A model generated the notes under the pieces. That model searched no databases and was not told the DNA's origin. It was given only the letters and a program-made list of their open reading frames with translations. Positions 21,566-50,015 of a stretch of 61,028 bases of DNA are shown in pieces. Location of the stretch: UHGV virus genome UHGV-0011871. The stretch is one strand, 5' to 3'. Source of the DNA: a virus. Positions within the stretch are counted from its first letter, which is position 1. Each line of letters opens with the position of its first letter. The position numbers and the translations under genes were made by a program.

Positions 21566-21569
21566 GAAA

Positions 21570-22836: not shown

Positions 22837-23054
22837 TTAGCTGCGAATTCAAGACGGCACAAGAGGCGATTAGATACGCTCAGTCACACGGAGGATGGCT
22901 TTACTATCGATTGGAGGACGGTCACACGTTTTGGCACTGTCCGAGGACGTACATGATGCATGAAATTCTGCGGAAACATGCAGGCTCTGGCTACTGTAGT
23001 GCGTGGGTTGGTATGGAAGAATACGTAAACAATTTGGAGGCGAAATTATTATGA
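22827..23054 (+). CDS. hypothetical early protein
   Basis: ATG 10 nt after an AGGAGG; overlaps the upstream stop. Confidence 0.45.
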   Translation: MGMISCEFKTAQEAIRYAQSHGGWLYYRLEDGHTFWHCPRTYMMHEILRKHAGSGYCSAWVGMEEYVNNLEAKLL

Positions 23055-23587: not shown

Positions 23588-23615
23588 CTGACACGAATTA
23601 TGAGTCGAATAAAAT
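23587..23615 (+). promoter_or_regulatory. internal early promoter P5 (CTGACA-N17-TAAAAT)
   Basis: Same family as P1-P4: 'CTGACACGAATTATGAGTCGAATAAAAT'. Confidence 0.45.
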
Positions 23616-23632
23616 AATCGGAGGCGGTAACA

Positions 23633-24085: not shown

Positions 24086-24165
24086 TGCACGGGACTCCCG
24101 TCCCTTGTCTTGCGTCTGCTACGGCAGGCTCGAGCCAAGCGTTGGGAGGCGCTGAGAAATAATTG

Positions 24166-24194
24166 TTGACACGATATACGAGTCGTGATAATAT
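24166..24194 (+). promoter_or_regulatory. internal early promoter P6 (TTGACA-N17-TGnTAATAT, extended -10)
   Basis: 'TTGACACGATATACGAGTCGTGATAATAT' has the same -35-proximal 'TTGACACGA' and the 'GAGTCG' spacer core as P1-P5. Confidence 0.55.
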
Positions 24195-24228
24195 GTATTC
24201 AAGCGATCATAAACGAGGAGGAAACGAA

Positions 24229-24699
24229 ATGAAAAACGAAATGTACACTAGAGGGGTATTTACACCAACGGCACACGTTATCTGCTACAACTGCCACGAC
24301 ACAAGTTACAGACCATCCGATAAATTGGCGGACTCAAGCAAGCGACCATTGCAGGAAGGTAACGGGGTTACAAAGTGCGACATGTGCGGAACTGACATCC
24401 AGTTAGACTCAAGCGTAGCCGAGGAACATAATCTAGTAGCCGAGTTTAAAGCGCTAGGATTCGATGCGGTAATGGCACAAACTGGCGGTATGAATAGTGC
24501 ATGTGAGATTAATACGAAGGTTGAAGACGGTAAAATTATCGAATGGGTATCGATAACATTCGACTACTGCGGAGACTCGGAGTATGCAGCCTTGCACATT
24601 CTCGAGGAAGGCGACGACTGGGAGGACATCGTTTGTACTACGGACAAGGCGGAGTTTATGAAAGCTATCACGGAATTCGTGACGAAGGAGGAAAAGTAA
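24229..24699 (+). CDS. zinc-ribbon early protein
   Basis: ATG after a GGAGGAAACGAA RBS; CxxC ... CxxC. Confidence 0.5.
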   Translation: MKNEMYTRGVFTPTAHVICYNCHDTSYRPSDKLADSSKRPLQEGNGVTKCDMCGTDIQLDSSVAEEHNLVAEFKALGFDAVMAQTGGMNSACEINTKVEDGKIIEWVSITFDYCGDSEYAALHILEEGDDWEDIVCTTDKAEFMKAITEFVTKEEK

Positions 24700-25208
24700 T
24701 GATACTGAAAAGGTTTTATATAGACGGAATTGACGATAGCAACGCATTTTGGGGTTACTCAGTAGGCAAAACGTGGAACGGATGGGCGATGCCTTTGTTC
24801 TTGAAGGAACAAGCCGACAAGGTTGCGGAAGCATTCACCGCACAAGGCGATACTGTTACGTACAATCCACAAACGGATTCATTCATCGTATTACTGGACG
24901 GTGCTGACGAGTATGAAGTATTCAAAGGTGTCGAGATTGACGGGACAACGTACTACCCTATCGGAGCAGGCTCGTGGATATGGGACGAAGAGTACACGAA
25001 AGGCGAAGAACTTCGGGACTTCCGTAAGCATATGTACCATTCGGTCGAAACACTGCAAGACGAACTGGCCAGGCACGGGGACTACGATAACAGGTTCGAT
25101 CTTCACATCGAGTTAAACGGAAAACGTATATCACTGGAAATGTGTGCGGACTTGTACCATCGTTTAGGGAAATTCATTGACGAAACTATCGAGGAGGAAA
25201 GCGAATAA
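24699..25208 (+). CDS. hypothetical early protein
   Basis: TAATG overlap with the upstream gene; RBS (AGGAGGAAAAG). Confidence 0.5.
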   Translation: MILKRFYIDGIDDSNAFWGYSVGKTWNGWAMPLFLKEQADKVAEAFTAQGDTVTYNPQTDSFIVLLDGADEYEVFKGVEIDGTTYYPIGAGSWIWDEEYTKGEELRDFRKHMYHSVETLQDELARHGDYDNRFDLHIELNGKRISLEMCADLYHRLGKFIDETIEEESE

Positions 25209-25483
25209 TGAAAGCGAATCTGACAGCGTTTGGAATGCCAATACTGACGGGCCTACTGCTCGTCGGTCTTTGGATGAACGCACCGGACAGTGGGACGGAA
25301 TGCACCACGGCAGACTACGCTCACATCCCGTATGCCGAGTCTTTTGACTTCCGGTGTACCGAAGACACTATGACGGTTTACAATGCGGAGACGAGCGATG
25401 TAATAGCGACTGAGGCACGATGCAAAACGAACGAAGTTAAAGCCGAAGACGGCACATGTGTACCTGAGGACTTCTACGAATAA
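25208..25483 (+). CDS. small secreted / lipoprotein-like early protein
   Basis: N-terminal signal-like hydrophobic segment; four Cys. Confidence 0.45.
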   Translation: MKANLTAFGMPILTGLLLVGLWMNAPDSGTECTTADYAHIPYAESFDFRCTEDTMTVYNAETSDVIATEARCKTNEVKAEDGTCVPEDFYE

Positions 25484-25502
25484 ACGAAACGAGGCGATAA
25501 CA

Positions 25503-25691
25503 TTGTTAGTATTACTATTTTGGTTCCTCGGTGTTCCGGCAATCATATCGGTGATATGTACCCCGTGGAGAGGTTCCGACTTCCTAATTATGAGCCGGAT
25601 TAAAGCCGTATTCGAATATACAACGGTAGTAATGATGCTCGTAGGATTTATCATGATACTAGGATACTTTGAAGCAAATATGAGAGGATGA
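25503..25691 (+). CDS. small membrane protein
   Basis: TTG start after a GAGGCG; two TM helices. Confidence 0.35.
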   Translation: MLVLLFWFLGVPAIISVICTPWRGSDFLIMSRIKAVFEYTTVVMMLVGFIMILGYFEANMRG

Positions 25692-25697
25692 TAGACG

Positions 25698-26021
25698 ATG
25701 GCAATGAGTAAACGGGACTATGCGGAGTTACTGCGTGACGCTTCGCAATCGATGATGGACGTTGTTAAGGCGATAGACAAACTGTACTATGACGTAGAGC
25801 CACTGGACGACTATAAGGAGTTTGAAGACGAATTGAATCAGACGGCTAAGAGTGCGATTGAGGACGCAATCAACGTACGTCAGATGTTCAAGCGACTAAT
25901 CACACTCGAGGACTTAGCGTTGAAAGTCGATGCAGTAGCCGATCACCTGCATTTAAGTGCCGGAGAAAACGAATACAACGGCGAACTGGACACGGGAATA
26001 CCGTGGAAGAACGAAGATTGA
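25698..26021 (+). CDS. hypothetical early protein
   Basis: RBS (GAGAGGA). Confidence 0.45.
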   Translation: MAMSKRDYAELLRDASQSMMDVVKAIDKLYYDVEPLDDYKEFEDELNQTAKSAIEDAINVRQMFKRLITLEDLALKVDAVADHLHLSAGENEYNGELDTGIPWKNED

Positions 26022-26118
26022 CGGGCATGTCTCCCGTCCCTTGTATAGCATCCGAGCCACCCGTTCGGACGTTATCCAAGCGTTAGGAGACGCTTATAAA
26101 ACACGAGGAGGAATCGTA

Positions 26119-26409
26119 ATGACAACGACTACTAAACAGGAAGCATTTATCACGGAACTTCGCCTGACTGCGATAGCTTTGCAGAAAGCAATCCCGACTA
26201 TGGATGAACTGAACGGGAGATTGTACGAACTGACTCACGAATACGAGCACGAAGTCAATCGGCTTCCCGAGCATGACGAGCAACTGATTCTCGAAGCAAA
26301 GGAAATGTTCATGAACCTTCCGGTGTGGTCAACAATGACAGACGTAGCTAACGGACTTGTCGATCTTGTCAACGATTTAGAAGCGAAGCAAGGCGAAGGC
26401 AAGCAATGA
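26119..26409 (+). CDS. hypothetical early protein
   Basis: ATG after a CGAGGAGGAATCG. Confidence 0.45.
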   Translation: MTTTTKQEAFITELRLTAIALQKAIPTMDELNGRLYELTHEYEHEVNRLPEHDEQLILEAKEMFMNLPVWSTMTDVANGLVDLVNDLEAKQGEGKQ

Positions 26410-26615
26410 CACTAGCCGATAAGATACGGGCACAAGCACGGGTTAAGGCGGTCGAGATACCGCCCCCTGGGGCTACCCAACGATGCAAAGACGCACTAGA
26501 CACGTACTTTTTCGGAGGGACACCGTGCAAGTCCGATGCCTTATGGTTCTACGGATTCGCTACGTTAGCCCTCGTAACAATAATTTTACTCGGCACGATT
26601 AACGTGCTATTATAG
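26406..26615 (+). CDS. small membrane protein
   Basis: ATGA overlap with the upstream gene; C-terminal TM helix. Confidence 0.4.
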   Translation: MTLADKIRAQARVKAVEIPPPGATQRCKDALDTYFFGGTPCKSDALWFYGFATLALVTIILLGTINVLL

Positions 26616-26618
26616 GAG

Positions 26619-26876
26619 GTGACATGCATTATGGGAGTGAAACAATTGATTCAATCTAACCTGAAAGAACTGTTACACGCTAGACGGCTGACGATTCGTG
26701 AGTTCTCACGTATGATCGACTACCGATTCGAGTCTGTACGTCAACTGTATAACAACGAATCCAAGCAGGTTCCGCTAGCCCTAGTCGAACGGGTTTGTTT
26801 GGAACTTCGCATAACTCCGGGCGAACTATTCACGGTGATAGACGCTAACGGAGAGGCAATACAACCGAAGCACTAA
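26619..26876 (+). CDS. XRE-family HTH transcriptional regulator
   Basis: 'LTIREFSRMIDYRFESVRQLYNNESKQVPLALVERVCLELRITPGELF' is a typical HTH_3 fold; RBS (AGGAGGTG). Confidence 0.6.
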   Translation: MTCIMGVKQLIQSNLKELLHARRLTIREFSRMIDYRFESVRQLYNNESKQVPLALVERVCLELRITPGELFTVIDANGEAIQPKH

Positions 26877-26903
26877 ATCATACGAACAAACGGAGGGGAA
26901 ACG

Positions 26904-27080
26904 ATGCAAGAGTACATGATAGGAACGCATAAGTTCGAATGTAACGATGAAACCGAGGCGTTACGTATAGCAAAGCGTACCATGTTCGAAAAAGGATGGC
27001 GCAATCTTCGCTTATTGCGAAAAGAAACTGACGGATGGAACGTATGCCAAGTGATACCTAGCTTCAATACTAATCGATAA
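26904..27080 (+). CDS. hypothetical small protein (58 aa)
   Basis: Not in the ORF track. RBS (GGAGGGG), 4 nt spacer, then ATG. Confidence 0.35.
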   Translation: MQEYMIGTHKFECNDETEALRIAKRTMFEKGWRNLRLLRKETDGWNVCQVIPSFNTNR

Positions 27081-27102
27081 AAACAAAAGGGGAGAAAACA
27101 AA

Positions 27103-27681
27103 ATGGCAAAAGCAGAAAAAGTAAAGAAACCGTTCTACAAAAAATGGTGGGTATGGGTACTCGCAATTATCGTTATAGCTGCATTCGCAGGTGGTGGCGA
27201 GGAAGCCGAGGAAACATCCACGTCCAATCAAACGAACCAAAAAGAGGAAAAAGCGAGTAAGAAAGAGGAAGTCGTAGGCATGGGCGAAGCGATTAAAGTC
27301 GGTGACGTTGTATTCACGGTACACGGCAAGGAAACAGCGAAGACAATCGGCGATCAATACGTAGGGCAAGACGCACAAGGAACGTATCTAATACTCGATG
27401 TCACGGTTAAGAACGAAGGCAAAGAAGCGATAACAACCGATTCATCGTTCTTCAAACTGAAAGCAGGCGAATCGACTTACGACTCAGACGGGACAGCCGA
27501 CATGTATATCAACGATGCAAACAATATGTTCTTCCTCGCTAAAGTAAATCCAGGCAACGAGACACGAGGCAAGATAGCATTCGATGTCAACGATGCAGTT
27601 ATCAACGCTACTGATACGGTAGTCAACGTACAAACGGGTGCCTTCGGTACCGAACAAGCGCAAATTAAAATCGCTGAATAA
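27103..27681 (+). CDS. DUF4352-like membrane-anchored protein
   Basis: N-terminal TM helix followed by a beta-rich domain with 'VGDVVFTVHG...YLILDVTVKNEGKEA...', resembling DUF4352. Confidence 0.5.
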   Translation: MAKAEKVKKPFYKKWWVWVLAIIVIAAFAGGGEEAEETSTSNQTNQKEEKASKKEEVVGMGEAIKVGDVVFTVHGKETAKTIGDQYVGQDAQGTYLILDVTVKNEGKEAITTDSSFFKLKAGESTYDSDGTADMYINDANNMFFLAKVNPGNETRGKIAFDVNDAVINATDTVVNVQTGAFGTEQAQIKIAE

Positions 27682-27693
27682 CGCAAAAAAAAT

Positions 27694-27727
27694 GCCCTCC
27701 GTCCAATCGACGGGGGCTTTCTTCTTA
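27694..27727. terminator. bidirectional rho-independent terminator
   Basis: 'GCCCTCCGTCcaatcGACGGGGGC' hairpin flanked by an A8 run upstream and TTTCTTCTT downstream, between convergent genes. Confidence 0.65.
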
Positions 27728-27745
27728 TCATGGCGTGATACCACG

Positions 27746-28171
27746 TCACCAACTATTATGAAACGACCTAGTATTCGGTGTGTAGTCCGTTCCATCGGTC
27801 GCTACGTTGACACCGTGAGTGATTGGCACTTCGTACGTAACTACTCCTGCCTTGTTCTTCTTACGCTCGGAGCCTTGCGTACGTACCTTGTACATTCTCT
27901 CGGACATTATCGGGTACTCCTCGAGCGTCATTTTGTCAGGATGTGAGTCTGATAATTCTTCGTGCAGAATCACGTTAGCCAGTCGCTCAAGCAACGGCCC
28001 GTCAGGTGTTTTTCCCGTCTGCTCTACGTATGCATCCGTCAAATCTTCGACCATTTGCATACGGGCATCCCGAGGAACCTCACCTACGGACTGTTCTAGT
28101 TGCTGTACGTACTCTTCCATTCTCGACTTATAGTTAACACCAAAGCTGTATTGATTAGTTGACATATTCAA
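27746..28171 (-). CDS. hypothetical protein
   Basis: 141-aa ORF; last gene of the leftward replication-module transcripts. Confidence 0.4.
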   Translation of the reverse strand: MNMSTNQYSFGVNYKSRMEEYVQQLEQSVGEVPRDARMQMVEDLTDAYVEQTGKTPDGPLLERLANVILHEELSDSHPDKMTLEEYPIMSERMYKVRTQGSERKKNKAGVVTYEVPITHGVNVATDGTDYTPNTRSFHNSW

Positions 28172-36710: not shown

Positions 36711-36875
36711 GATATTTTCCTTGCCGACTCGTTTGAACCGATGCCCATCGTCGTCTCCGTCGTCAAGTTCTATCTCGATGGGGTAGAAGGCGCAGTTCAC
36801 CACGCCTAATACCGTTGCCCATCCTGAGAATAGCGTCGACTCAACGTACACACGGTCGCCTTTTACAGACCGCAA
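36684..36875 (-). CDS. hypothetical protein
   Basis: 63-aa ORF. Confidence 0.3.
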   Translation of the reverse strand: MRSVKGDRVYVESTLFSGWATVLGVVNCAFYPIEIELDDGDDDGHRFKRVGKENIVKHGPRNG

Positions 36876-39313
36876 CGCAGCTGTGCTCCGCAGTTATTAC
36901 ATTCGTGACAGCCTGCTCGTTCGATTACTTCGCCTTGACGGCATACCGGACAATGATCGCCGATGTCAGTACCGAACGTTACCGTATCCTCCAACGGCTT
37001 TACCGGAGCCTCGTACTGGACTTTTACCTCCGCCTCGATGTCTTTGTCTCGGGAGTTCTCTTCGGCTGTCAGCGATAGCACCTGTGCGTCCCTAGAGCCA
37101 TCCACGTAGACAGTTCCACCTTTCGCACCGCCTTTGTACAGCCGCTCGTATACAGCTTGCACTTGCTCGACGGAATAGCCTTTCGGTGCATTTACCGTTT
37201 TACTCAACGAGGAGTCAACGTGCTTCTGAATAGCGTTCTGAACATCCGCATGTGCTTCCGGTGTAAGGGACATCGCTGTGACAAATTCTTTCGGCAGGTT
37301 ATCCGCATCTACGCCCAGTTCCTCTACGATAGCTGCGTTAACTTCCATGAACTTTCCTAGTCGTCCACTGCGGAAGTATTTGAATGCGAAGTACGGCTCT
37401 AGTCCCGTGGATACTCCGACCATTGAACCGGTTGAACCCGTAGGTGCTACCGTCAGTAGGTGAGAGTTACGAATACCGTGCTTCAATACGCCATGCTTCG
37501 TATATGCAGGCATACGTTTCATGTAGCCGGACTCGATGAATCTTTCACGTAGGTCTTGCGTAGATTCCACGTCTTCACCGATTAGGAACGGGAATGAACC
37601 CTTTTCCTTCGCAAGATCGATAGATGTTTGGTAGGCTTCGTGTGCCATTGTTTCGAATACCTTTTCGATCAGTTCGATTGACTCGGGGCTTCCGTACTCG
37701 ATACCGCAGTAAATCAACATGTCAGCGAGGCCCATTACGCCAAGTCCGACACGTCGCTCTCCTAACGCCTGCTTCTCGTTAGCTGGCAGGAAGTACGGAG
37801 TAGAATCGATTACATTGTCCTGCATACGTACGCCCACTCTTACTGTGTTACGTAGCTTTTGGAAGTCGACCTGCTTCGTCTGCTTATTGACCATGTTCGC
37901 AAGGTTAACGGCAGCTAGGTTACATACGGAGTAAGGAGCCAACGGTTGCTCTCCGCACGGATTCGTACATACAACCTTCTGACCGTAGGCACTAGCGTTA
38001 GTTTCGTCATTCGCATTGTCGATGAAGAAGATACCTGGCTCGGCTGCATACGTCGCACAAATATTGACTAACTGCCATAATTGCTTCGCTTTAATCGTGC
38101 GGTACGTTTTAACCGGAAGATGCCATTCTCGCACGTCTCCGACCTCGTGCCATTTAGCGTTGTATTCCGCCATCTGCTCCGGCGAGTAGTTTTCTACGTC
38201 CGGGAAGCGAAGATCGTAGTCGGCATCGGCTTCGACCGCTTCCATAAAGTCTTTCGTAAACGCGACGGAAATGTTTGCGCCGGAAAGGAAGTCCGGATTA
38301 TGGACGGAGTAGTGGCCGCCGTCGTTAAGTAGGTTTTCGGCATATGCTAAGCTATCGTCGGAGATTGCGTGGGTTATGGTCGCTGTCAAAGACTCCTGCT
38401 CAACTACCGATAACGGCGTAAACTTAAGCTTTTGCTGCGCCAAGCTGCGTATTTCCTCGTCGTCCGTAGTCTCGATAATGAAGCGCAAGATTTTCGGATT
38501 CTGCATTTTCGAGATAATGAACTCGAGAATATCGGGATGCCAATCGGCTAGCATTATCATTTGTGCTCCACGTCTGCTACCGCCCTGCTCGACTAGGTGC
38601 GTTAGCTTCGCAATATCATCGAGCCAAGATACAGCACCGGAGGACTTACCGTTTACGCCTCGGGCCAATGCATTGCGTGGACGTAGCGTAGAACCGTTCG
38701 TACCTACACCGCCACCTCGGCTCATGATTTCCATTACTTCGTTACGATGTTCACCGATGCCCTCACGGCTGTCTTTCGGATACGGCATTACGTAGCAATT
38801 GAAGTAGGTTACGTTCTGCTCCGAACCTGCTCCGTAGATTACCCGACCTGCCGGCACGAAGTTAAGATTGACAAGTTCGTGGTAAAAATCGGCTTCGCTT
38901 TCTTTTCGTTTACTTTCGTCTGTCTCGACCGCAGCTAGCCCTCTTGCGTTCCTTTTCGCTATTTGCTCGTAGAACAATTCGAGGGGCTTGTCGACTACTT
39001 TGCGGTGAACCTTGATTTCCTTTCCACCGGCTTGCCCTTCGTACTGCTCTTCGAGTTCTACCGTGATATGGTTGCCCTCGATCTTCGCTACGTTACCGAT
39101 TCCTCTTGCCGGAAAATTCGGGTCAGGATTAATCGTCAGGACGACTAGGTCACCGACTTTCAGCGTGGACAGCTTCGTATCTTTGAATGAGTAACGGTCG
39201 AGCATGATTAGCCTCGACACGCCCTCGAATGTTTTCGTCATATCTTCGGTGATCGGAGCCACCTGCGGAAAGTTCTTTATGTCTTCGTTCAGTTGTTGAA
39301 TATCGAATCTCAA
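36863..39313 (-). CDS. nrdJ: ribonucleotide reductase, class II (adenosylcobalamin-dependent, NrdJ-like)
   Basis: 'NLNFVPAGRVIYGAG' and the 'CTNPCGEQPL' cysteine loop. C-terminal Zn ribbon 'CPVCRQG...CHECNNC'. No NrdB/NrdF partner in the window. TTG start with an AAGGAGGG RBS. Confidence 0.75.
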   Translation of the reverse strand: MRFDIQQLNEDIKNFPQVAPITEDMTKTFEGVSRLIMLDRYSFKDTKLSTLKVGDLVVLTINPDPNFPARGIGNVAKIEGNHITVELEEQYEGQAGGKEIKVHRKVVDKPLELFYEQIAKRNARGLAAVETDESKRKESEADFYHELVNLNFVPAGRVIYGAGSEQNVTYFNCYVMPYPKDSREGIGEHRNEVMEIMSRGGGVGTNGSTLRPRNALARGVNGKSSGAVSWLDDIAKLTHLVEQGGSRRGAQMIMLADWHPDILEFIISKMQNPKILRFIIETTDDEEIRSLAQQKLKFTPLSVVEQESLTATITHAISDDSLAYAENLLNDGGHYSVHNPDFLSGANISVAFTKDFMEAVEADADYDLRFPDVENYSPEQMAEYNAKWHEVGDVREWHLPVKTYRTIKAKQLWQLVNICATYAAEPGIFFIDNANDETNASAYGQKVVCTNPCGEQPLAPYSVCNLAAVNLANMVNKQTKQVDFQKLRNTVRVGVRMQDNVIDSTPYFLPANEKQALGERRVGLGVMGLADMLIYCGIEYGSPESIELIEKVFETMAHEAYQTSIDLAKEKGSFPFLIGEDVESTQDLRERFIESGYMKRMPAYTKHGVLKHGIRNSHLLTVAPTGSTGSMVGVSTGLEPYFAFKYFRSGRLGKFMEVNAAIVEELGVDADNLPKEFVTAMSLTPEAHADVQNAIQKHVDSSLSKTVNAPKGYSVEQVQAVYERLYKGGAKGGTVYVDGSRDAQVLSLTAEENSRDKDIEAEVKVQYEAPVKPLEDTVTFGTDIGDHCPVCRQGEVIERAGCHECNNCGAQLRCGL

Positions 39314-40898: not shown

Positions 40899-41062
40899 TG
40901 CGTCAGCCTCCCGATCAATAGAGCCGAGTGGTAATTGTCTGTCCGGCTGTACTGCACCTCAACGTCGTACCCGTCTGCCTGCATGTGATTGATTGCTTCT
41001 GATAGTTCGTCGATGAAGTCTGTTTCATATCGAGTGCGGACGAGTAATACTTTTCCGATCAT
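40895..41062 (-). CDS. hypothetical protein (55 aa)
   Basis: Not in the ORF track; ATGA overlap with the RuvC start. Confidence 0.3.
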   Translation of the reverse strand: MIGKVLLVRTRYETDFIDELSEAINHMQADGYDVEVQYSRTDNYHSALLIGRLTQ

Positions 41063-42069
41063 AGGCTATCACGCTCCTCTCGTATCCGTTCGATAGTCCG
41101 CAGGCATTCTGCGTAGGTTTCCTTAATGAACTTCGGCATACCCGAACGCATGACACGGTTCTTCTTACGTCGTATCTCCTCGACCTCTTCGTCAGTCATT
41201 TCCAGTGCGATGATTTTCTTGAACGAGTTAAACGTCCACTTCTCGGGGTCGAGTGCCGGAGGTTCCATATCGTTTACAGCTTCGAGAACTTCGACGAAAT
41301 AATCGAATACCTCTTCCTTGTCCTTCTGAGTAATTTCGATGCCGAACGCTCTAATGTCCGGTGACTTTTCGTACTCACCTTCGGGGTATTCCCACCCTTT
41401 ATGTGCCGTGTTAACGTACAGTACGATGAAGTAGTCAAGATCGAACATTTCAGCGTAACTTACGCATTGCTTAACGTGCTTAATGTCCGGCTCTTTCAAC
41501 GAGTACAGCGATGTCCTAGCTGCTGACGTTTGCTTCGTTTTGATTTCGAGTCCCACTCGGATGATTTCGCCAGTCTCAGGATGTGCGTATTCCATAACAC
41601 CGTCGGTAGCCCCGAACAGATAGAACGACCAATCCTTGTGCTCGACTTTCTTGTTCTTTTTCGAGAACTCCTCGAACATCGGTTGCCCCTTCTTCGTACG
41701 CTCGAAACGGAACCTCGAAGGGAATGAACCCTTTTCAGCGAGGTTACGTTCCATAGCGAGTACCGTACGTTGAATCATGTCACCGACACGAGTACCGATG
41801 TCCTGCCATCTGCCTTGATACGGCGGCTTCCGATCTTCGTCCTTCTCCGCCCTAATCGATTTATAGTAAAGTTCTCGCTGACATGAGTTAGCTGCGGAAG
41901 GTGAGAAGTACGGTCGCTTCGGAAATACATTCGGAGCATCTACATACCATTCGTGAATCTGTGCATCCAGTTCGTTATCCCAAACCTCGGGCAACGAGTA
42001 CCATTCGTCTAGGTGTCGTACAAAATCGTCTGCTACCGCCTGTATGTCTACTTTCGTTGCTTTAGTCAA
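41059..42069 (-). CDS. PD-(D/E)xK recombination exonuclease (YqaJ / lambda-exo-like)
   Basis: 'FSPSAANSCQRELYYKS' ... 'VGLEIKTK' fits the YqaJ-type viral recombinase exonuclease family. Confidence 0.55.
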   Translation of the reverse strand: MTKATKVDIQAVADDFVRHLDEWYSLPEVWDNELDAQIHEWYVDAPNVFPKRPYFSPSAANSCQRELYYKSIRAEKDEDRKPPYQGRWQDIGTRVGDMIQRTVLAMERNLAEKGSFPSRFRFERTKKGQPMFEEFSKKNKKVEHKDWSFYLFGATDGVMEYAHPETGEIIRVGLEIKTKQTSAARTSLYSLKEPDIKHVKQCVSYAEMFDLDYFIVLYVNTAHKGWEYPEGEYEKSPDIRAFGIEITQKDKEEVFDYFVEVLEAVNDMEPPALDPEKWTFNSFKKIIALEMTDEEVEEIRRKKNRVMRSGMPKFIKETYAECLRTIERIREERDSL

Positions 42070-42080
42070 AGAACCACTCC

Positions 42081-42260
42081 TTACTCGTATTTAGTATTCG
42101 TTGTTTTCGTGCTAACTTCGTTGTATTTCGTATCGAAGCGCTCGTAACCCTCACCGTTGAATTGAATGTTGGTTACTGGGCCTTGACCGTTGTACTTCGG
42201 TTGGAATGGCAGTCCGTAACGCTTCGCTTCTGCCCGTCTTTCTCGTCTACTTGCTTTCAC
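42081..42260 (-). CDS. hypothetical basic protein (59 aa, GTG start)
   Basis: An AAGGAGG sits 9 nt upstream of the GTG. Not in the ORF track. Confidence 0.25.
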   Translation of the reverse strand: MKASRRERRAEAKRYGLPFQPKYNGQGPVTNIQFNGEGYERFDTKYNEVSTKTTNTKYE

Positions 42261-42346: not shown

Positions 42347-42499
42347 CTAGTTCCCCAATTTTCCCTGACGTTTTAATCTCTCGTGGCAGGCGTTACAATA
42401 AACCTTTTCTCCTACCCGTTTTCCGTCATAATACGGAGCCTCGAAACAAACATAGTTACAAACTTCGCATTTCTCATCGAATAAACTCGGTCTACTCAT
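42347..42499 (-). CDS. zinc-ribbon protein (50 aa)
   Basis: 'CEVCNYVC...CNACHERL'; RBS (GAGGGGGG). Not in the ORF track. Confidence 0.3.
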   Translation of the reverse strand: MSRPSLFDEKCEVCNYVCFEAPYYDGKRVGEKVYCNACHERLKRQGKLGN

Positions 42500-42541: not shown

Positions 42542-43801
42542 TTACGCCAATCCTCTCTCTTTAAGTACGGATTGAACCGCCTCTTGCATCGCTTTGACGA
42601 GTGCTTCTTCCAGTGACTCCTCTTCGACTTTCTCGACTTCCCCGACCTTAACGAAGTAATCCGCATCTACATAGTAAGTTTCACCGACTGTACCCGGCAT
42701 AGTCCGATGTTCGAGAACCTTTACTCGGATTTCACCATCGTTGACCTCGATTACTTCTCCTTTTGTCATATCTGCGGTTGTAATTCCGTAGTGTCTCGAA
42801 GATTCGGGAGTTCCCGTTACGATGTCTCCGACTTGTAACTTCGGCTCCTCTTCGATCAACTCGACTTGTTTTTCGCCAATCCATCCGTCCTCTTCGACTC
42901 TCCACGCTGGACCGTAATCGGTAGTATCAAAGTCAGGTAGACGTTCTTTCAGTGTGTAAATACTGCCAGTACGGATGCCACGTACTTTGTCGCCTGCTTT
43001 TAGTTTTGCGAAATCGGCTTCCTCGACGATGTCCTCGGCTTTCCTTTCAAGTAACTCGACTTCGAAGTCTCTAATCGGTCGATCGTTTTCCTCGACGAAG
43101 AATCTGCCGTCGTCCTCGGAGGCAATCTCAGAAATCGTAAGGACATCGCCATTAGCGTACTGACCTTCCGTGCCGAAAGCGCTGACGACTTTTACTTTAT
43201 CTCCGACTTGCGGACGGAGTTTATCATCGTACTTTCTAGTGGTAGGCCCGACTAGCTTGACTTGGTCTTCGCCAACCCATCCGAACGAATACTCCTCTAC
43301 TGACCATGCGGCTCCGTAATCACCGTCCACATCCTTCCGACGTGCTTTCAACGTGAATACCTCGCCATCCATTAACGATGCGACCTTGTCTCCGACTTTA
43401 AATCTCGCAATGTCTACTAACTCGAAGTGTTTCGCATCTACGTAGTAAGTTGCACCAACTTCGTGCGGCATCGTTTTATGCTCGAGAACCTTTACTCGGA
43501 TGTCTCCGTGGTAGACCTCGATTACTTTACCCTTCGTCATGTCTTCGTCCGTGATGTAATATGGAGCGCCTTCCGTTGCAGTAACGATGTCTCCGACTTT
43601 GAACGGATTTACTGGACGGAGGCTAGTCGCATCTGCGTAACCTCTACGGTCGCCTTTATAAACTGCGTAGCTGTCGGGTCTTGTCTGAGGTATATATGAC
43701 GGGTAATCACCGATTACAACCTCGTCTCCGACTTCAAATCCGCCCAATGTAGATTCCAGTTTCGTAATTACCGCTTTGTCACCTTTTTTAAATTTCGCCA
43801 T
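42542..43801 (-). CDS. KVGD-repeat protein (internal-repeat, SH3/KOW-like modules)
   Basis: About eight '(F/L)KVGDxV' modules. The N- and C-terminal ~60 aa are near-duplicates ('VGDIVTATEGAPYYITDEDMTKGKVIEVYHGDIRVKVLEH' versus 'VGDIVTGTPESSRHYGITTADMTKGEVIEVNDGEIRVKVLEH'). Confidence 0.5.
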   Translation of the reverse strand: MAKFKKGDKAVITKLESTLGGFEVGDEVVIGDYPSYIPQTRPDSYAVYKGDRRGYADATSLRPVNPFKVGDIVTATEGAPYYITDEDMTKGKVIEVYHGDIRVKVLEHKTMPHEVGATYYVDAKHFELVDIARFKVGDKVASLMDGEVFTLKARRKDVDGDYGAAWSVEEYSFGWVGEDQVKLVGPTTRKYDDKLRPQVGDKVKVVSAFGTEGQYANGDVLTISEIASEDDGRFFVEENDRPIRDFEVELLERKAEDIVEEADFAKLKAGDKVRGIRTGSIYTLKERLPDFDTTDYGPAWRVEEDGWIGEKQVELIEEEPKLQVGDIVTGTPESSRHYGITTADMTKGEVIEVNDGEIRVKVLEHRTMPGTVGETYYVDADYFVKVGEVEKVEEESLEEALVKAMQEAVQSVLKERGLA

Positions 43802-43838
43802 TTAATATCGCTCCCTCGAGGCTTTCCGCCCGTTATTT

Positions 43839-43890
43839 GCCTTACACTTACTAATAGACCATTTTGAGTGTTTCGTGGACCACGTTTTAC
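43839..43890 (-). promoter_or_regulatory. conserved phage motif, copy B
   Basis: 'CCTTACACTTACTAATAGACCA-N14-TGGACCACGTTTT', between the polA stop and the KVGD-repeat gene. Confidence 0.45.
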
Positions 43891-46145
43891 ATTTTTTCTT
43901 TTTTAGCGAACCACGCTTCGACCTTCATACCTTCGCCCCAACGCTCCATTACCTCAAGATCGGTGCCGTTCGGTACAATATCGCCCCACGGATAACTCTC
44001 GATCATGAGACGTTCGATAACCTTCGCATCCTCACGAGTGAAGTCGGCAGGCACTTCGAATATCAATTCATCGTGGATTGTTCCCCATAACGCCCATCCC
44101 TCCCTACGTTGGCACTCCTCGTGCGCTTTAATCATCGTCACTTTCGTTTGGATAGCCGATGAACCCTGTACACGGGCATTCGTAGCCTGACGCAATGCAC
44201 GGCTGATACGGCTGTTATGCAGGCGCTGCTCTTCGTATTTGGGGTCGTAATACTTGTTCCACGGTATTTGCTTACGGCTTAACTTAGCGTCCGGCAAACG
44301 GCGTTTACGGTACTTCTTATCGGCCCATACGAAGCCGTGTTTCTTCGCAAATTCGCTGTTACCTTCGAGCCATGCTTGTAGCTTCGGCATGGAACCGAAA
44401 ATCTCTTCCTTGAACTGTTTGGCGGAATCCTTATCGGTGCCCAACATATCTGCGAGTGAAAAATCCGACATCCCATATAGGGTCGCTAACCATACGACTT
44501 TCATCTGCTTACGTTCCTTCGTATCTGAGCCGTCAGGTAACTTATTGACTTCCTCGTACGGACGCTTGTAATATGTTGCGGCCATCATTGCGTAAGGGTC
44601 ACGATTCGTCAGGAACGCATCGATCAATACCGGCTCCTGCGATAAGTACGCAACGCATCGGATTTCCTGCGCTTTAAAGTCGGCACCGATTAATACCTTG
44701 CCTGGCGGTGCCATGAACATCGGACGTGCTTCCTGCGGCTGATTCTGTACGTTGAATCCTTGATTGGTCGTATCTGCTTCGTCTTTGCCCGAACTGAATC
44801 GTCCCGTTACCGTACCCATCGGGTTAAACCTCGAATGCCAACGTTTAGTAGTCGGATTCTGTTTCGTAGGCAAAGTGTCGATATACGTTCCACTTAGCTT
44901 CGTGACTGCCTTGTATTCCAGTAGCTTTGCGATTACCTCATGCTTACCTTTCAACGGCTTTAGCGTACGTTTCGCATCCAAGTTAGGCAGTTTCTTGCCG
45001 ATCTTCTTAGATAACGCAGGTTTCATCTGATGCGGAGAATTAAGGTTCAGTTCCTCGTCTCCTTCGTGATAAGGCGATAGTTCCTTAATGAGCCATTCTC
45101 GCAGTTCCTCGGCTTGTCGGTGTAACTGCTCCCCGTACTCCTTTGCGAATTCCAGGTCGAGGATGTAGCCGTTTGCTTCCATCGCCACTACGACGTATAG
45201 AATCGGCACTTCTACCGTTTGGTAATATTCGAGTAGCGTCGGCATCTTCCTGTAGTATTTCATTTGATACTCGTACAGTTTCCAAGTCAGGTGCGTATCT
45301 TTAGCTGCATACACGAGTGCGATGTCGAGTGGAATATCGGAGAATAACGTCTTGCCGAATAGTTCCCCGAACGTATCCGACTCCACCTTGAGGTACTTCG
45401 GTGCTAGGTCTTTCAGCTTGAACGATTCCTCGTTTTCATTCAGAACGTGCATAGCCGTCATTGTATCCCATACAACCCCGAGAAGATCGGAGCCATGTCG
45501 TCTGAACATTGCTATATCGAATATGGCGTTATGTGCGACTTTGCCCTTCGATTCATCCCGTAGGAACTTGTCTAAGCCATTTAGAACGTATTCCCTCGAT
45601 AGTTGGTGCGTAGCTTCGTTATGCGCCACCGGAATGTATACGTGCCAATCTGCTTTCGGTAAGGTTATAGAAATACCGACGATAACGTCTGTGTAAACGT
45701 CAACGCCGGTAGTCTCGGTGTCTATTGCTACGATAGGTTCGAATAGGAGTGAGTCTACGAGGATTTTAAACCTATCTGCCGTAGTGATTAATTCGTAGTT
45801 GTCCGGTGTATTCTTGACCATGTTCGCAAGTGATTCCTCACGCTTTTTCTTAGCGAGGATTTCGTATAGACGCTTGGCTTCCGCAGCCGAGAACTTGCCT
45901 TGCTTTTTGCCTGCCGGAACAGGTTCTCGACCGACCTCGCCATTCATCATTGCTTCGTACACTTCGTCAAGCCGCTTTTGGTCAAGACCGCCCTTCGTGT
46001 AGGCTTTCGATTGCTTAATCCTTGCCCACGCTTCTTCTAGCGTTTCAGTTGCGTCCTTCTTACGTGACTCAGCTTCCTTCGCTTTCGCTTTGCCTTCGGA
46101 TTCTGCTTCGCCTTTCAGCTTGATTTTTCCGATTTTTATATTCAC
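43887..46145 (-). CDS. DNA polymerase I-like (family A) with 3'-5' exonuclease domain
   Basis: Exo I 'IVAIDTETTGVD', polymerase motif A 'GADFKAQEIRCVAYLS', motif B 'RQATNARVQGSSA' and motif C 'WGTIHDELIFE'. Confidence 0.8.
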   Translation of the reverse strand: MNIKIGKIKLKGEAESEGKAKAKEAESRKKDATETLEEAWARIKQSKAYTKGGLDQKRLDEVYEAMMNGEVGREPVPAGKKQGKFSAAEAKRLYEILAKKKREESLANMVKNTPDNYELITTADRFKILVDSLLFEPIVAIDTETTGVDVYTDVIVGISITLPKADWHVYIPVAHNEATHQLSREYVLNGLDKFLRDESKGKVAHNAIFDIAMFRRHGSDLLGVVWDTMTAMHVLNENEESFKLKDLAPKYLKVESDTFGELFGKTLFSDIPLDIALVYAAKDTHLTWKLYEYQMKYYRKMPTLLEYYQTVEVPILYVVVAMEANGYILDLEFAKEYGEQLHRQAEELREWLIKELSPYHEGDEELNLNSPHQMKPALSKKIGKKLPNLDAKRTLKPLKGKHEVIAKLLEYKAVTKLSGTYIDTLPTKQNPTTKRWHSRFNPMGTVTGRFSSGKDEADTTNQGFNVQNQPQEARPMFMAPPGKVLIGADFKAQEIRCVAYLSQEPVLIDAFLTNRDPYAMMAATYYKRPYEEVNKLPDGSDTKERKQMKVVWLATLYGMSDFSLADMLGTDKDSAKQFKEEIFGSMPKLQAWLEGNSEFAKKHGFVWADKKYRKRRLPDAKLSRKQIPWNKYYDPKYEEQRLHNSRISRALRQATNARVQGSSAIQTKVTMIKAHEECQRREGWALWGTIHDELIFEVPADFTREDAKVIERLMIESYPWGDIVPNGTDLEVMERWGEGMKVEAWFAKKEKM

Positions 46146-46357
46146 GTTACCACCCCGACGTTTAATTGCTTGTAGTAATCGATTAGGTCTTCGAAGTTAT
46201 CGAGTAGATATACGAGCATACAATCATCATCGCAGTAGTAATGCTCGTGTCTTTCGTCATAGAGACTAGGCTCCGAGGCACCGCAGGAGACGCACTTAGA
46301 TACGTACTCCTCCGGCAATCCCCGTTCTGTCCAGTCCGGTACATAGTTGCCTCGCAT
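46142..46357 (-). CDS. small zinc-binding protein
   Basis: 'CVSCG...YYCDDDC'. Confidence 0.4.
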   Translation of the reverse strand: MRGNYVPDWTERGLPEEYVSKCVSCGASEPSLYDERHEHYYCDDDCMLVYLLDNFEDLIDYYKQLNVGVVT

Positions 46358-46369
46358 TCTACCGCCTCC

Positions 46370-47731
46370 TTACTTACTCGCTACGTACTCTAGGTCGTCC
46401 GGTCCATACACATACGTCATAATCTGATTAACGGATGTCGACCATCCTTTTGCGCAGATATTAAAGTCACTGATTCTCGTAATCTCTACGATAGTTCCTA
46501 CCGGTGATGCACCAGGACTTTTCACTACCCTAGCGATGTCTCCGACTTTGAACTTAGCTAGCTTGGCTTTCTCGGCTTCTGCTTCGGATTTCTTGCCTTC
46601 CTCTTCGGAAATCTTTTTGATGTTCTCAGTTCTGATGAATCCGTAAGTGTCGTAGCCGATGCGGTCTACTCGGAAATCAAAACTTCCAGTGTCTTCCGTA
46701 TCCGTAATCTTCAAGATGTCTCCGACCTTATGCTCGAGATACTCCACGGTAACCATAGCGTAATCTCCTACTTTGATCGGCTCTTCGGTCACCTTTTCTA
46801 GCTGCGACGGGTCGGCGTACCCCCTCCGGCCCATGCCCGATTGCTTCTCGATTGCGATTTTACGAATACCACTACCATGCGAGTAGTTCGTATCTTTGAC
46901 CTCGTACGTGTTACCGTCTCCGAAGCCGATTAATGGGTAATCACCGCCACCACTCAACAGCTTCACTTTGTCGCCTGCTTTGAAATCATCGAAGGAAAGA
47001 CCGGCTTGCTTCGTTTCGATCAGACGGTAGACATCCCGTTTTTCTTTTCCGCCCCAACCTTCCGTGTAGAGGGTAGTCCAGTTGTCAGCTACGAATTGGT
47101 CGTCTTCCTTAACCTCATACGGCTTGCCGCCCGTAGTGTTAAAGGAATGACTATTGTGGAATACGACTAAGTCGCCTGGCTTCGCTTCTTCCGCACCGAT
47201 GTTTTCGTATTGCTTACCGTTGTACGTTAAGATTCCCTTGACATCCTTACGTAGCACCACGAAGTCTTCCATGTCAGTATCGAACATATCGCCATCATCG
47301 TCTCTAACCTGAGGGTCGCCTAATCCGTCAATCTCCTCAATTTTGTAGAGCTTCCCTTTGGTGATATAGTCAGGTACAACGCCTGTGAACTTAACGAAGT
47401 CACCGACCATTGCGTCCTCTACGTCGATCTCGGTAAAACCGGAGGTGTCTGTTTCTTCTTTGCGGAATACAACGGCTTGCCCTCCGAAGAAATGCGCTTC
47501 ATCCTCGGCATCATCGAAGAATGTATACTTGTGTACTTCACGGTATCCTGTATCGACAACCTCGTAGTACGCACCTTTCGTAATGTCCATGGTCTCAATA
47601 AGAGACAGCATGATGTCGCCAACATTCGCAGTTCTATCGTCTACTTTCGTGTACTTGTCGCCCAAGTATTCAATTTTCGTTACTTCCCCGTTCACCATAT
47701 CGATTGTTTTTACATTAGATAACATTGCCAT
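46370..47731 (-). CDS. KVGD-repeat protein, paralogue of 42542..43801
   Basis: Repeated 'KVGD'/'KAGD'/'KPGD' beta-rich modules ('IKVGDYAMVTVEYLEHKVGDILKITD', 'FKVGDIARVVKSPGASPVGTIVEITRI'). Confidence 0.5.
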   Translation of the reverse strand: MAMLSNVKTIDMVNGEVTKIEYLGDKYTKVDDRTANVGDIMLSLIETMDITKGAYYEVVDTGYREVHKYTFFDDAEDEAHFFGGQAVVFRKEETDTSGFTEIDVEDAMVGDFVKFTGVVPDYITKGKLYKIEEIDGLGDPQVRDDDGDMFDTDMEDFVVLRKDVKGILTYNGKQYENIGAEEAKPGDLVVFHNSHSFNTTGGKPYEVKEDDQFVADNWTTLYTEGWGGKEKRDVYRLIETKQAGLSFDDFKAGDKVKLLSGGGDYPLIGFGDGNTYEVKDTNYSHGSGIRKIAIEKQSGMGRRGYADPSQLEKVTEEPIKVGDYAMVTVEYLEHKVGDILKITDTEDTGSFDFRVDRIGYDTYGFIRTENIKKISEEEGKKSEAEAEKAKLAKFKVGDIARVVKSPGASPVGTIVEITRISDFNICAKGWSTSVNQIMTYVYGPDDLEYVASK

Positions 47732-47755: not shown

Positions 47756-48154
47756 TTATTGTACTGCCGTTACAGGTTCTACCCACTCGTCAGCGTTAAA
47801 TCGAATCCACCGTTTTGCAGCCGATGCGTCACCGGCCCAGTATTCTTTCTTGCCTTCGTTTTCGAACATGTACACCGTTTCTCCCTCGACACCGATAATA
47901 TAGTCGCAGTCATGGGGTTGATACGGAGTTCCGTTGCCTTTAGTAGCGTACACTACCATTTCGTTTCCACGGTCGACTCGTCTGCGGATGGTCTTTACTT
48001 GGATGGTCTTGAATTCGTTCGTGAACGGGTCCCTTGCTATGATGTCGTACACCTCGTCGACCACTGGGAAGGCTACGTCCCATCCGTTAGATAGGAGCGC
48101 CCTCGCTGCGGTCAATTCGGAGACGGTGCCTCGTACTTGCGTTTGATGTGCCAC
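47756..48154 (-). CDS. PD-(D/E)xK nuclease (Hjc / VRR-NUC-like)
   Basis: 'GTVSELTAARALLSNGWDVAFPVVDEVYDIIA....IQVKT' gives an E...D...(Q)VK catalytic triad arrangement. Confidence 0.5.
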   Translation of the reverse strand: MAHQTQVRGTVSELTAARALLSNGWDVAFPVVDEVYDIIARDPFTNEFKTIQVKTIRRRVDRGNEMVVYATKGNGTPYQPHDCDYIIGVEGETVYMFENEGKKEYWAGDASAAKRWIRFNADEWVEPVTAVQ

Positions 48155-48195: not shown

Positions 48196-48993
48196 TCAGA
48201 ATGGCACGTCGTCGTCGCTTAGTTCTTCCGGCTCGATTTCCGTAGCGCCTTCGTCTACGTTCGTCTCAGCTTCGTCTTTTGGCAATACGGACTTGTCGAC
48301 TTTACCTTCCGTAGCTTCACGTAGAATAGCGATGATGTCTGCTTCGTCACGGAAGTTAGCCAGTTCTTCGTAGTCGATTTCGGACTGATCGATTTTAGCC
48401 GCTTCCGCCTTGATTTTGGCAGCTTCGTCGTCTTCGAAGTCGGCAGTCGTAATCGTATACGTTTTGTCAGCTTTGCTAATCGTAACTACATCGCCGATCA
48501 TCGTATATGATTTATCGAACTTACGGGCAGCTTTCTCCGTTTTGTCCATGTCGGATAGCAAGTTATTTACGTGGAACTCTTTTAAGTCCAGTACACGCCA
48601 TACTTTCAATTCGACATCGTATACCGGAACCATGAAGTAAAGGCCTCGTTTTGCCTTCGCTTTGTCCGAGATACATACTTTCGGATTAGGCTTCTCGAAT
48701 TTCGCAAACATTTCGTCTGCTTCCTTCTCCGTTTCCGGTGCCTTACGTGGTGAGTTTAGGCACGTATGCTTTTGGAAGTACGTCTCACGAGGGCTGTAAT
48801 TACCGTGCTCATGTACGTAGTAGAAGTACCATAGGTTAGGGTCACGTAGGATTACGAAATCCTTACCGTCCTTCAACTCTTGGCTCAGGCGTACGTAGCG
48901 AGTGATACCTTCCGGCAGACCTGCGTTAATACCTCCGCTAGCTGCTTTTTCCCTTGCCTCGTCACGCTTTTTTAGTTTATCCCGTAGTCCCAT
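48196..48993 (-). CDS. SSB-like protein with acidic C-terminal tail (..SDDDVPF)
   Basis: The C-terminal 'EPEELSDDDVPF' matches the SSB partner-binding tail (DDDIPF). The N-terminal region is not a recognisable classical OB-fold SSB. Confidence 0.45.
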   Translation of the reverse strand: MGLRDKLKKRDEAREKAASGGINAGLPEGITRYVRLSQELKDGKDFVILRDPNLWYFYYVHEHGNYSPRETYFQKHTCLNSPRKAPETEKEADEMFAKFEKPNPKVCISDKAKAKRGLYFMVPVYDVELKVWRVLDLKEFHVNNLLSDMDKTEKAARKFDKSYTMIGDVVTISKADKTYTITTADFEDDEAAKIKAEAAKIDQSEIDYEELANFRDEADIIAILREATEGKVDKSVLPKDEAETNVDEGATEIEPEELSDDDVPF

Positions 48994-49118: not shown

Positions 49119-50015
49119 TTAACCTGCCGACTCAATCGGGTTGTCGTGGCACCTATACACATAATCACGGTACTCTTCGACTGTCATGTCGTTAACTTTC
49201 GCTAGATATTCGATTAATTCGTCGAACTTCGTTTGACTCAGGTTGAATCGTTCCTTGTTATCCGAGAACCATTCGAATATGTTTCTGTCGTGTTTCGAAT
49301 TGTTCAAGTCCGAACGAAGAGGAATCATGTTCCCTGCCGTTGTGCCTCCGTGCCCCCAAGATATTGGAATTACATGGTCCCATTGTATGTCGGGACTTCC
49401 TGTTAACGCACACCCTCCGAAATGATTGTGCGCCTCAAGTTGTTCTTCTGCGGTCCAATCGTCCGGAAGACCTGCTAGTCTCGCCTTTCGTCTGAGCCGT
49501 ATTTCTCTAATTTTTTCGGGGTTACGGGCACGGTAATTACGGATTACTTCTTGTATTTTAACTCGGTTAAGTTTGCGGTACTCACGCTCGTACGCTACTC
49601 GTTTATCTCTATTACGTAGGTAGTAGTCCCGTTTCTGCTCGGATAATCTATCTCGATTGCGTAGGCGATACTCTCGTTGGTACTCCGCCACCTTGTCTCG
49701 GTTACGCTGACAGTAATCTCGATTATATTCGAGTCGTTTATCTCTCTTGCGCAGGTAATACTCCCGTCTTTTCTCGGCAAGTTCCTGACGGTTGCGCTTC
49801 TGATACTCCCTCATTTGCAGGTTATTGCACACCCTACACGACGGATATGCTCCACCTAATCCGTTTTCCCTTCGAGTGAACTCGCTTAACAACTTCGCCT
49901 CGCCACACTTGGTGCAACGTTTGGCTACCACGTTTCCCTCGGAATCTTCCCAGTAATCCGTTCCTTTACGATTGGCTTTACGTACTAGCGTCGATAGAGT
50001 CTCGGTCAGTTCCAT
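49119..50015 (-). CDS. HNH endonuclease with N-terminal Zn ribbon and tandem basic heptad-like repeats
   Basis: HNH core 'CALTGSPDIQWDHVIPIS.GG...N..PL....N.SK'. Five or more repeats of 'EY.REYRLRNRDK'; 'CTKCGEAK...CRVCN'. Confidence 0.65.
   Translation of the reverse strand: MELTETLSTLVRKANRKGTDYWEDSEGNVVAKRCTKCGEAKLLSEFTRRENGLGGAYPSCRVCNNLQMREYQKRNRQELAEKRREYYLRKRDKRLEYNRDYCQRNRDKVAEYQREYRLRNRDRLSEQKRDYYLRNRDKRVAYEREYRKLNRVKIQEVIRNYRARNPEKIREIRLRRKARLAGLPDDWTAEEQLEAHNHFGGCALTGSPDIQWDHVIPISWGHGGTTAGNMIPLRSDLNNSKHDRNIFEWFSDNKERFNLSQTKFDELIEYLAKVNDMTVEEYRDYVYRCHDNPIESAG

Follow-up and report, generated by a model that had tools for sequence, protein, structure and literature searches.

The virus genome UHGV-0011871, analysed here over its whole length of 61,028 nucleotides (the window), carries two genes, designated A and B, which bracket the gene of a family-A DNA polymerase (PolA) between positions 42,542 and 47,731. 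Both encode repetitive proteins that are predicted to be arrays of small SH3-like barrels, and B occupies the same place in the replication-recombination operon across Bacillus-type phages and prophages, including those of related genera. The two open reading frames (ORFs) keep the boundaries first assigned to them, and their location inside a replication operon, proposed in a first-pass annotation made from the sequence alone, is confirmed by the genes alongside, i.e. those for a DnaB-like helicase, a primase, an SSB-like protein, a PDDEXK_5 nuclease, B itself, PolA, A, a Cas4-like exonuclease, RuvC and ribonucleotide reductase (RNR). The genes immediately concerned are the following (lengths in amino acids, aa).

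48196..48993, minus strand: SSB-like DNA-binding protein (PHROG 20486) with the C-terminal end ...DDDVPF
47756..48154, minus strand: PDDEXK_5 nuclease, directly upstream of B (Pfam, 1.6e-6; PHROG 5018)
46370..47731, minus strand: gene B, 453 aa; β-meander, about six SH3-like barrels and one helix; pI 4.64, net charge -31; PHROG 15694
46142..46357, minus strand: acidic Cys-rich ORF of 71 aa between B and PolA, with homologues in the related loci L004 and L072 and in phage Lietuvens
43887..46145, minus strand: PolA, family-A DNA polymerase with 3'-5' exonuclease, 752 aa, bracketed by B and A
42542..43801, minus strand: gene A, 419 aa; six SH3-like barrels and a C-terminal helix (from structure modelling and Foldseek); pI 4.72, net charge -29
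41059..42069, minus strand: Cas4-like PD-(D/E)XK exonuclease, downstream in the conserved module (PHROG 1706, 1e-55; synteny)

The nuclease gene is separated from B by 24 nt, and Shine-Dalgarno-like sites precede both A (GAGGGAG) and B (GGAGG). PolA of the window is 70% identical to the polymerases of Sporosarcina phage Lietuvens and Bacillus phage phi18-2, and the Pfam domain DNA_pol_A is present in the PolA homologues of related loci. A scan for promoters and terminators between 39 and 52 kb revealed no internal minus-strand signal above background, which agrees with one long transcription unit but is no evidence for it.

Models of both proteins were computed by AlphaFold2 (AF2) with the family alignments, and reached a mean predicted local distance difference test score (pLDDT) of 81 for B and 76 for A. 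Protein A was predicted to comprise six all-β units followed by a helix, and protein B an N-terminal β-meander plus barrel, five further barrels and one helix. The individual barrels are confidently modelled while the predicted template modelling scores are low (0.34 for B and 0.38 for A), which suggests beads without a fixed mutual arrangement. The modules of A delimited in this way are listed below in the order of the protein.

43610..43801, minus strand: barrel A0, residues 1-64, with KKGD and EVGD motifs and an RRGYAD end as in module B3
43409..43609, minus strand: barrel A1, residues 65-131, of the type 'FKVGDIV..Y.IT...MTKG.V...VKVLEH', duplicate of A5 (hidden Markov model, HMM, 6.8e-27; pLDDT 91-96)
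43217..43408, minus strand: barrel A2, residues 132-195, duplicate of A4; lower model confidence (pLDDT 57-80)
43010..43216, minus strand: barrel A3, residues 196-264, also fused to a B-type N-terminal domain in the homologues P0012, P0013 and P0015 (pLDDT 51-68)
42842..43009, minus strand: barrel A4, residues 265-320, duplicate of A2
42638..42841, minus strand: barrel A5, residues 321-388, duplicate of A1
42542..42637, minus strand: C-terminus of A, acidic linker and amphipathic helix, residues 389-419 (helix 397-415)

The modules of B are as follows.

47444..47731, minus strand: B0, residues 1-96, the family-defining N-terminal domain, of which residues 1-30 are the best conserved in the family (from alignments)
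47234..47443, minus strand: barrel B1, residues 97-166, 'GDFVKF...GDPQ..DDDGD.FDT', second in conservation within B
46997..47233, minus strand: module B2, residues 167-245, a low-confidence barrel (pLDDT 40-74) with the lead-in 'ILTYNGKQYE...KPGDLVVF'
46787..46996, minus strand: barrel B3, residues 246-315, 'FKAGDKVKLLSGGGDYPL...RRGYADPSQLE'
46607..46786, minus strand: barrel B4, residues 316-375, an extra module found in only about 10-20% of the family members (occupancy 0.21)
46370..46606, minus strand: helix (residues about 376-392) and C-terminal barrel B5 (393-453)

The confidence of the models is low for A2-A3 and for residues 211-244 of B. A short C-terminal helix comparable to that of A ends many A-like proteins.

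When the models were compared with the Protein Data Bank (PDB) by Foldseek, the top matches of both proteins were the multi-KOW arrays of SPT5 (E = 1e-8 to 1e-9), followed by UBE2O, the repeats of Mind bomb and HERC2, the Tudor tandems of SETDB1, 53BP1 and SGF29, Agenet tandems and the SH3 tandems of STAC. The identities are 7-20%, and KOW, SH3, Tudor, Agenet and MIB-repeat structures were matched with a probability of 1.0. Neither the complete proteins nor their modules taken singly gave a match above threshold in Pfam, NCBIfam or PADLOC; within the SH3 clan of Pfam there were sub-threshold matches only, to SH3_2 at 0.17 and to SH3_15 at 0.13 (the latter for a module of A). Among 73 long relatives of A, however, 11 match SH3_15 (best 1.9e-13), and others match NHase_beta_C (5.7e-8), SH3_13 and KOW. 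The profile of the B family matches the SH3-like protein Rv2302 (E = 2e-4), and this was the only real match when solved structures were searched with A and with the profiles of B and of the A1/A5 module; matches to the gp26 tail needle in that search were discarded as coiled-coil noise. Rv2302 of M. tuberculosis (PDB 2a7y), which aligns with the 'KVGDYAKVV' barrel of the B family, is a single-domain protein and offers no functional lead. Taken together, modelling and structural comparison support the prediction that A and B are each an array of six or seven SH3-like (KOW/Tudor-type) small barrels of about 55-75 aa on flexible linkers, the barrel type having been guessed from the sequence. The impression that they belong to no known family also held, as PHROG 15694, into which B falls, has no assigned function.

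The motif by which the modules were initially recognised, described as '(F/L/I)KVGD.V' at the start of each module, is a genuine repeat well above chance: in the predicted proteome of about 18,200 aa, 9 of the 13 occurrences of [KQ][VA]GD fall in A and B, which together make up 4.8% of the residues. With looser xxGD variants included there are 7-8 motifs per protein, 55-76 aa apart, and in the AF2 models every GD lies just ahead of strand one in one of the small barrels, where the motif forms a cap. The duplicated modules of A had been taken for near-identical copies at the two ends of the protein. They turn out to be diverged duplicates (A1 and A5; z = 30 in pairwise module comparison, 62% protein identity), which are the second and the sixth of the six barrels, with A0 before the first copy and the helix after the second. 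At the level of DNA this duplication is seen as a repeat of 125 nt with 78% identity (42652-42776 versus 43423-43547, 771 nt apart). A second duplication links A2 and A4 (z = 23, about 50% identity), and all remaining pairs of modules within and between A and B score z <= 5 and have little in common beyond the xVGD cap. The 15-mer AARGTCGGAGAYATY, which encodes the K-V-G-D-I start of modules, occurs at four sites on the minus strand (42821-42835, 43586-43600, 46535-46549 and 46715-46729), all within A or B, against a chance expectation of 0.09; microhomology of this sort at the borders of modules could favour the shuffling of barrels in the family. A scan of the window with the A1/A5-module HMM recognised no further modules. 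The HMM does match weakly in RNR (36863..39313, minus strand), which has an N-terminal extension of about 110 aa, the first Pfam domain starting at residue 114; residues ~45-110 of the extension contain an 'LKVGDLVVL...' segment with the look of a small barrel.

A and B had also been described as paralogues, which is correct in the sense that they are related at the profile level, but the relationship is only distant. The best BLASTP match between them has E = 5e-5. An initial hhalign comparison of the two families (98.9%) was rejected because three chimeras, P0012, P0013 and P0015, sat in both family alignments; after their removal the probability is 96.5% (E = 9e-10), with several registers of alignment. 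The chimeras themselves combine a B-type N-terminal domain, the A3 module of A (50-67% identity) and a B-type C-terminus. The hhalign score and these natural chimeras place A and B, as distant relatives, within one mosaic superfamily.

Protein B belongs to PHROG 15694 (E = 1.1e-44, four matched stretches), while A falls outside it and has PHROG 33878 as its best match, at 1e-5. Homologues of B form at least 159 clusters, mostly entries of about 420 aa from prophages of the B. subtilis group annotated as 'hypothetical protein'. The window protein shares with this prophage family its gene order and N-terminal domain, and differs from it by the extra barrel B4 and by the absence of the coiled-coil segment that follows the N-terminal domain in most Bacillus prophage members. 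Its N-terminus, MAMLSNVKTIDMVNGEVTK, fits the family consensus 'MAKLxGVKTxDMVNGEITK', and conservation is concentrated there: the consensus frequency is 0.84 for residues 1-30 and 0.67 for barrel B1, compared with 0.15-0.67 elsewhere. The lengths of B-like ORFs range from 164 to 556 aa and cluster near 240, 347 and 420 aa, i.e. in steps of roughly one module. A profile search with the N-terminal domain alone retrieved only short Bacillus fragments and no new architectures.

The genomic surroundings of B were compared in 72 IMG/VR loci recovered with the B family alignment, 68 of which extend far enough to reach PolA. A PDDEXK_5 nuclease gene lies directly upstream of B in all 72, and PolA is present in all 68 of the longer loci; in 67 of them no other large gene lies between B and the downstream PolA, and in L072 the order is reversed. 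The Cas4-like exonuclease was found in 67 of the B loci and RuvC in 63. Between the stop of the nuclease gene and the start of B there is an overlap or a direct junction (-1 to +1 nt) in 39 of 67 loci, and the gap is at most 40 nt in 59 of the 67. The same gene order is annotated in phage phi18-2, in a B. subtilis prophage, in a B. paralicheniformis prophage and in Sporosarcina phage Lietuvens, while phage Mgbh1 carries two B-like genes after PolA. B is a positional fixture of an operon that runs from the PDDEXK_5 nuclease through B, PolA and the Cas4-like exonuclease to RuvC. In Bacillus and related genera, B and its close relatives reside in phages as well as in prophages.

The distribution of A is of another kind. 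When 1.84 billion representatives were scanned exhaustively with phmmer, only 353 relatives reached E <= 1e-3. They measure between 57 and 1158 aa and extend from proteins of one module to arrays with up to eight matched stretches; the A1-type module stands alone in proteins of 57-140 aa. No A-like gene occurs in any of the 72 B-containing loci, a search of IMG/VR with A found no related locus, and the degenerate DNA pattern of MTKG...VKVLEH is present in only two IMG/VR loci. No match was obtained by tblastn with A, or by megablast when the region was compared with 50,697 phage records. A gene of about 350 aa that follows PolA in Bacillus prophages, Lietuvens and Mgbh1 was considered as a counterpart of A and rejected, since it encodes the Cas4-like exonuclease. 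Domain fusions among the 73 long relatives are limited to SH3-clan matches and isolated cases, and no enzymatic domain recurs as a partner; P0018 (L081, 7001-7861) and P0026, two proteins of phages or prophages, are fusions of an A1-type barrel with pentapeptide repeats. All six contexts examined, that of the window included, place A-like genes in early, replication or nucleotide-metabolism surroundings, and none in a structural or lysis block. In L004 the A-like gene directly follows PolA, in L003 and L080 it lies between the genes for thymidine kinase and deoxynucleoside kinase downstream of PolA-Cas4-RuvC, in L081 it adjoins a DNA methylase and YopX (this is the pentapeptide-repeat fusion), and in the temperate phage L082 no other large gene separates it from the preceding repressor/Cro region, and an SNF2 helicase lies downstream. 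A is probably a lineage-specific accessory relative that seems to have arisen partly by intragenic duplication.

The rate at which these genes change can be judged against their neighbours in L004 (JGI Ga0671488_0000059), the closest relative of the window phage, where identity to the window is 76% for the SSB-like protein, 68% for PDDEXK_5, 75% for PolA, 67% for the Cas4-like exonuclease, 68% for RuvC and 74% for RNR. L004 has three SH3-array genes around PolA, at 4084-4668, 4898-5596 and 8001-9266 (194, 232 and 421 aa, respectively), and in its A-like protein of 421 aa the modules are ordered differently from those of A. At a larger distance, the P70-like phages of Listeria, whose PolA is 35% identical, have neither A nor B. 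The superfamily diversifies through duplication, loss and shuffling of whole barrels, and A and B evolve far faster than the neighbouring genes.

The interpretation that in our opinion best fits the array fold, the strict position and invariant N-terminus of B, the fast modular change and the acidity of both proteins is that A and B are soluble, multivalent protein-protein adaptors of the replication-recombination module, a reading we put forward tentatively. Under this reading, the near-invariant N-terminal 30 residues together with barrel B1 would form an anchor that ties B to a conserved phage component of replication-recombination; the candidate partners are PolA, the PDDEXK_5 nuclease co-translated with B, and the SSB-like protein through its DDDVPF tail. 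Further partners, differing between lineages, would be taken up by the variable barrels, which would contact peptides or protein surfaces in the SH3/Tudor/KOW manner, rather than DNA. The analysis itself shows the predicted fold, the anatomy of the repeats, the synteny, the mosaic evolution and the charge; that the barrels bind proteins, and which ones, we infer. Precedents for tandem SH3-like barrels that bind proteins or peptides are found in Mind bomb (REP/SH3_15), HERC2 and UBE2O, which are structural matches at E = 1e-4 to 5e-4; these, however, act in eukaryotic ubiquitin-ligase contexts, while A and B lack a ligase or zinc-finger partner domain, and the module of A itself reaches SH3_15 only at E = 0.13, under the threshold. 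Tudor and Agenet readers (SETDB1, 53BP1, SGF29, AGDP) have two to four adjacent small barrels of similar topology at 7-20% identity, but the reading of methyl-lysine has no obvious role in a phage.

Several observations count against an adaptor of the replication machinery. B of L004 is only 32% identical to that of the window, over 31% of the length, and its A-like protein 34% over 59%, with the order of modules permuted; this divergence of A and B is faster than would be expected of a stoichiometric part of the replisome. In phages whose PolA is 70% identical to that of the window, the protein at the position of B lacks the B N-terminal domain (Lietuvens) or B is split into two ORFs (phi18-2). 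In Mgbh1, and likewise in L072, B lies after PolA and apart from the nuclease. Moreover, adjacency in an operon can stem from shared timing of expression with no physical interaction, and the SH3-like fold is functionally promiscuous and by itself points to no function.

The strongest competitor of the adaptor is that A and B are effectors of host takeover, a role also raised in the first-pass annotation, or of counter-defence, whose variable barrels would sequester host RNA polymerase, replication or defence factors, the position in the operon reflecting co-expression only. We regard this as a possibility on the doubtful side. It would explain why A and B evolve, by shuffling of modules, so much faster than all of their neighbours, as well as the sporadic spread of A (missing from 72 of 72 B loci, with only 353 representatives), and it suits the strong acidity of both proteins, the occurrence of the A1-type module alone in proteins of 57-140 aa, its fusion to pentapeptide repeats in P0018 and P0026, and the A-like gene that comes first among the large genes past the repressor/Cro region of a temperate phage. 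Pentapeptide-repeat proteins are known as DNA mimics. On the other hand, the fixed, nuclease-coupled position of B and its near-invariant 30-residue N-terminus imply a conserved partner on the phage side, and searches found no likeness to PADLOC families or described inhibitors. Compared with the adaptor, the effector thus explains better the fast evolution and the sporadic spread of A, and less well the positional and N-terminal conservation of B; the two roles can be combined.

The role suggested in the first-pass annotation, that of a processivity factor or single-stranded DNA (ssDNA)-binding accessory of the family-A polymerase, is in our view unlikely. B does lie next to PolA in 67 of 68 loci and near the region of the SSB-like gene, and nucleic-acid binding is known for some SH3-like barrels, such as Sso7d and the C-terminal domain of integrase. 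The best structural matches are, besides, KOW arrays of the SPT5/NusG type, which ride on a polymerase. SPT5 of the eukaryotic DSIF (KOW1-7) has the same linear array of five to seven SH3-like barrels on flexible linkers, the GD-capped first strand of the A and B barrels recalls KOW motifs, and one homologue, P0040, is annotated as 'KOW motif-containing' and has a weak match to NusG KOW (E = 0.02). The resemblance ends there: identity is 10-14%, A and B have no Pfam KOW match and no NGN domain (neither Pfam nor NCBIfam gave an NGN/NusG match, and the N-terminus of B is modelled as an all-β domain), they are acidic and do not have the character of nucleic-acid-binding proteins, and the gene next to them encodes a DNA polymerase, not an RNA polymerase. 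Binding of ssDNA fits poorly with the net charges of -29 for A and -31 for B, to which no distinctly basic module forms a counterweight (the highest values are +0.5 for A0 and +1.8 for B5), and with an SH3-like fold in place of an OB fold, in a genome that has a separate SSB-like gene. Neither the AF2 models nor the Foldseek matches of A and B contain a clamp, thioredoxin or OB fold. An obligate subunit of the polymerase is improbable as well, given the split, truncated or highly divergent B (32% identical in L004) beside polymerases that are 70-75% identical, the absence of both genes from the P70-like phages and of A from every B locus. The acidic charge together with the fast gain, loss and shuffling of modules argues against DNA binding and against an obligate polymerase subunit alike.

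A more specific version of the adaptor can be formulated, in which B, and by extension A, would be a new kind of polymerase accessory: an acidic SH3-barrel tether that uses its invariant N-terminal hairpin and barrel B1 to connect PolA physically with the PDDEXK_5 nuclease, the SSB tail or both, and thereby couples replication to recombination-dependent fork restart. We consider this detailed scheme distinctly improbable. Least probable by far is that A and B are SH3b repeat proteins of the ordinary kind, from the virion or for binding the cell wall, whose genes are misplaced among the early ones, for which speak only a single generic match, at rank 11 of the Foldseek list of A, to YrvJ, a B. 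subtilis amidase with an SH3b array, and a weak, sub-threshold match of module B4 to Pfam Phage-tail_3 (E = 0.024), while the structure search gave no virion or cell-wall-binding placement, neither protein has a match to a lysin, tail or catalytic domain or to Pfam SH3_3/SH3_5, or a signal peptide-like N-terminus, both genes lie within the replication operon, more than 20 kb from the structural block, and every sampled context of a homologue is early or replicative.

Other features of the region deserve a brief description. The SSB-like protein ends in ...ELSDDDVPF, in close similarity to the C-terminal tip with which bacterial SSB recruits its partners, and the barrel proteins encoded nearby are candidates for binding this tail. 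The 71-aa ORF between B and PolA (pI 4.2, CVSCG...YYCDDDC), whose stop overlaps the GTG start of PolA, has a homologue at the same place in L004 (40% identity, 87% coverage) as well as in Lietuvens and L072, and its product is possibly a small zinc-binding partner of the polymerase. Just downstream of A lies an ORF of 50 aa (42347..42499, minus strand) with two CxxC pairs, resembling a zinc ribbon, which is followed by a basic ORF of 59 aa (42081..42260), in the 470-bp stretch that precedes the Cas4-like gene. An ORF of 298 aa (49119..50015, minus strand) comprises about eight tandem basic units of the type 'EY.R.Y.LRNRDK' and an HNH-like C-terminus, and has no Pfam match. At about 20000-28000 of the window the GC and AT skews switch sign, and the genome, elsewhere coded on the minus strand, has a run of plus-strand ORFs that probably forms a divergently transcribed module.

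The SH3-like fold class and its tandem arrays are well known in eukaryotic proteins and are common to many uncharacterised phage proteins (as judged from BFVD matches), and the literature searches, which included the genome paper PMC5135824, found no statement on the A and B genes. As far as the papers and libraries searched go, the novelty appears to lie in recognising that a family-A polymerase module contains an SH3-array gene fixed by synteny, and that this gene has mosaic relatives. The B family is real and had not been described before; with the present evidence B is a well-described conserved hypothetical, for which no new mechanism is demonstrated here. The family-A polymerase modules of Bacillus-type siphoviruses and prophages have been treated as fully annotated, with helicase, primase, SSB, PolA, exonuclease and RuvC, and B is an additional constant gene, which in about 70 independent phage genomes, as in many Bacillus prophages, has a small PD-(D/E)XK nuclease on one side and PolA on the other, its product having a fold not previously linked to phage replication. 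If B acts as an adaptor of the replisome, it would represent a new type of polymerase-associated factor; if A and B are effectors directed at the host, the shuffling of their barrels would be a clear example of an arms race played out on an SH3-like scaffold. Both possibilities are directly testable in phages of B. subtilis.

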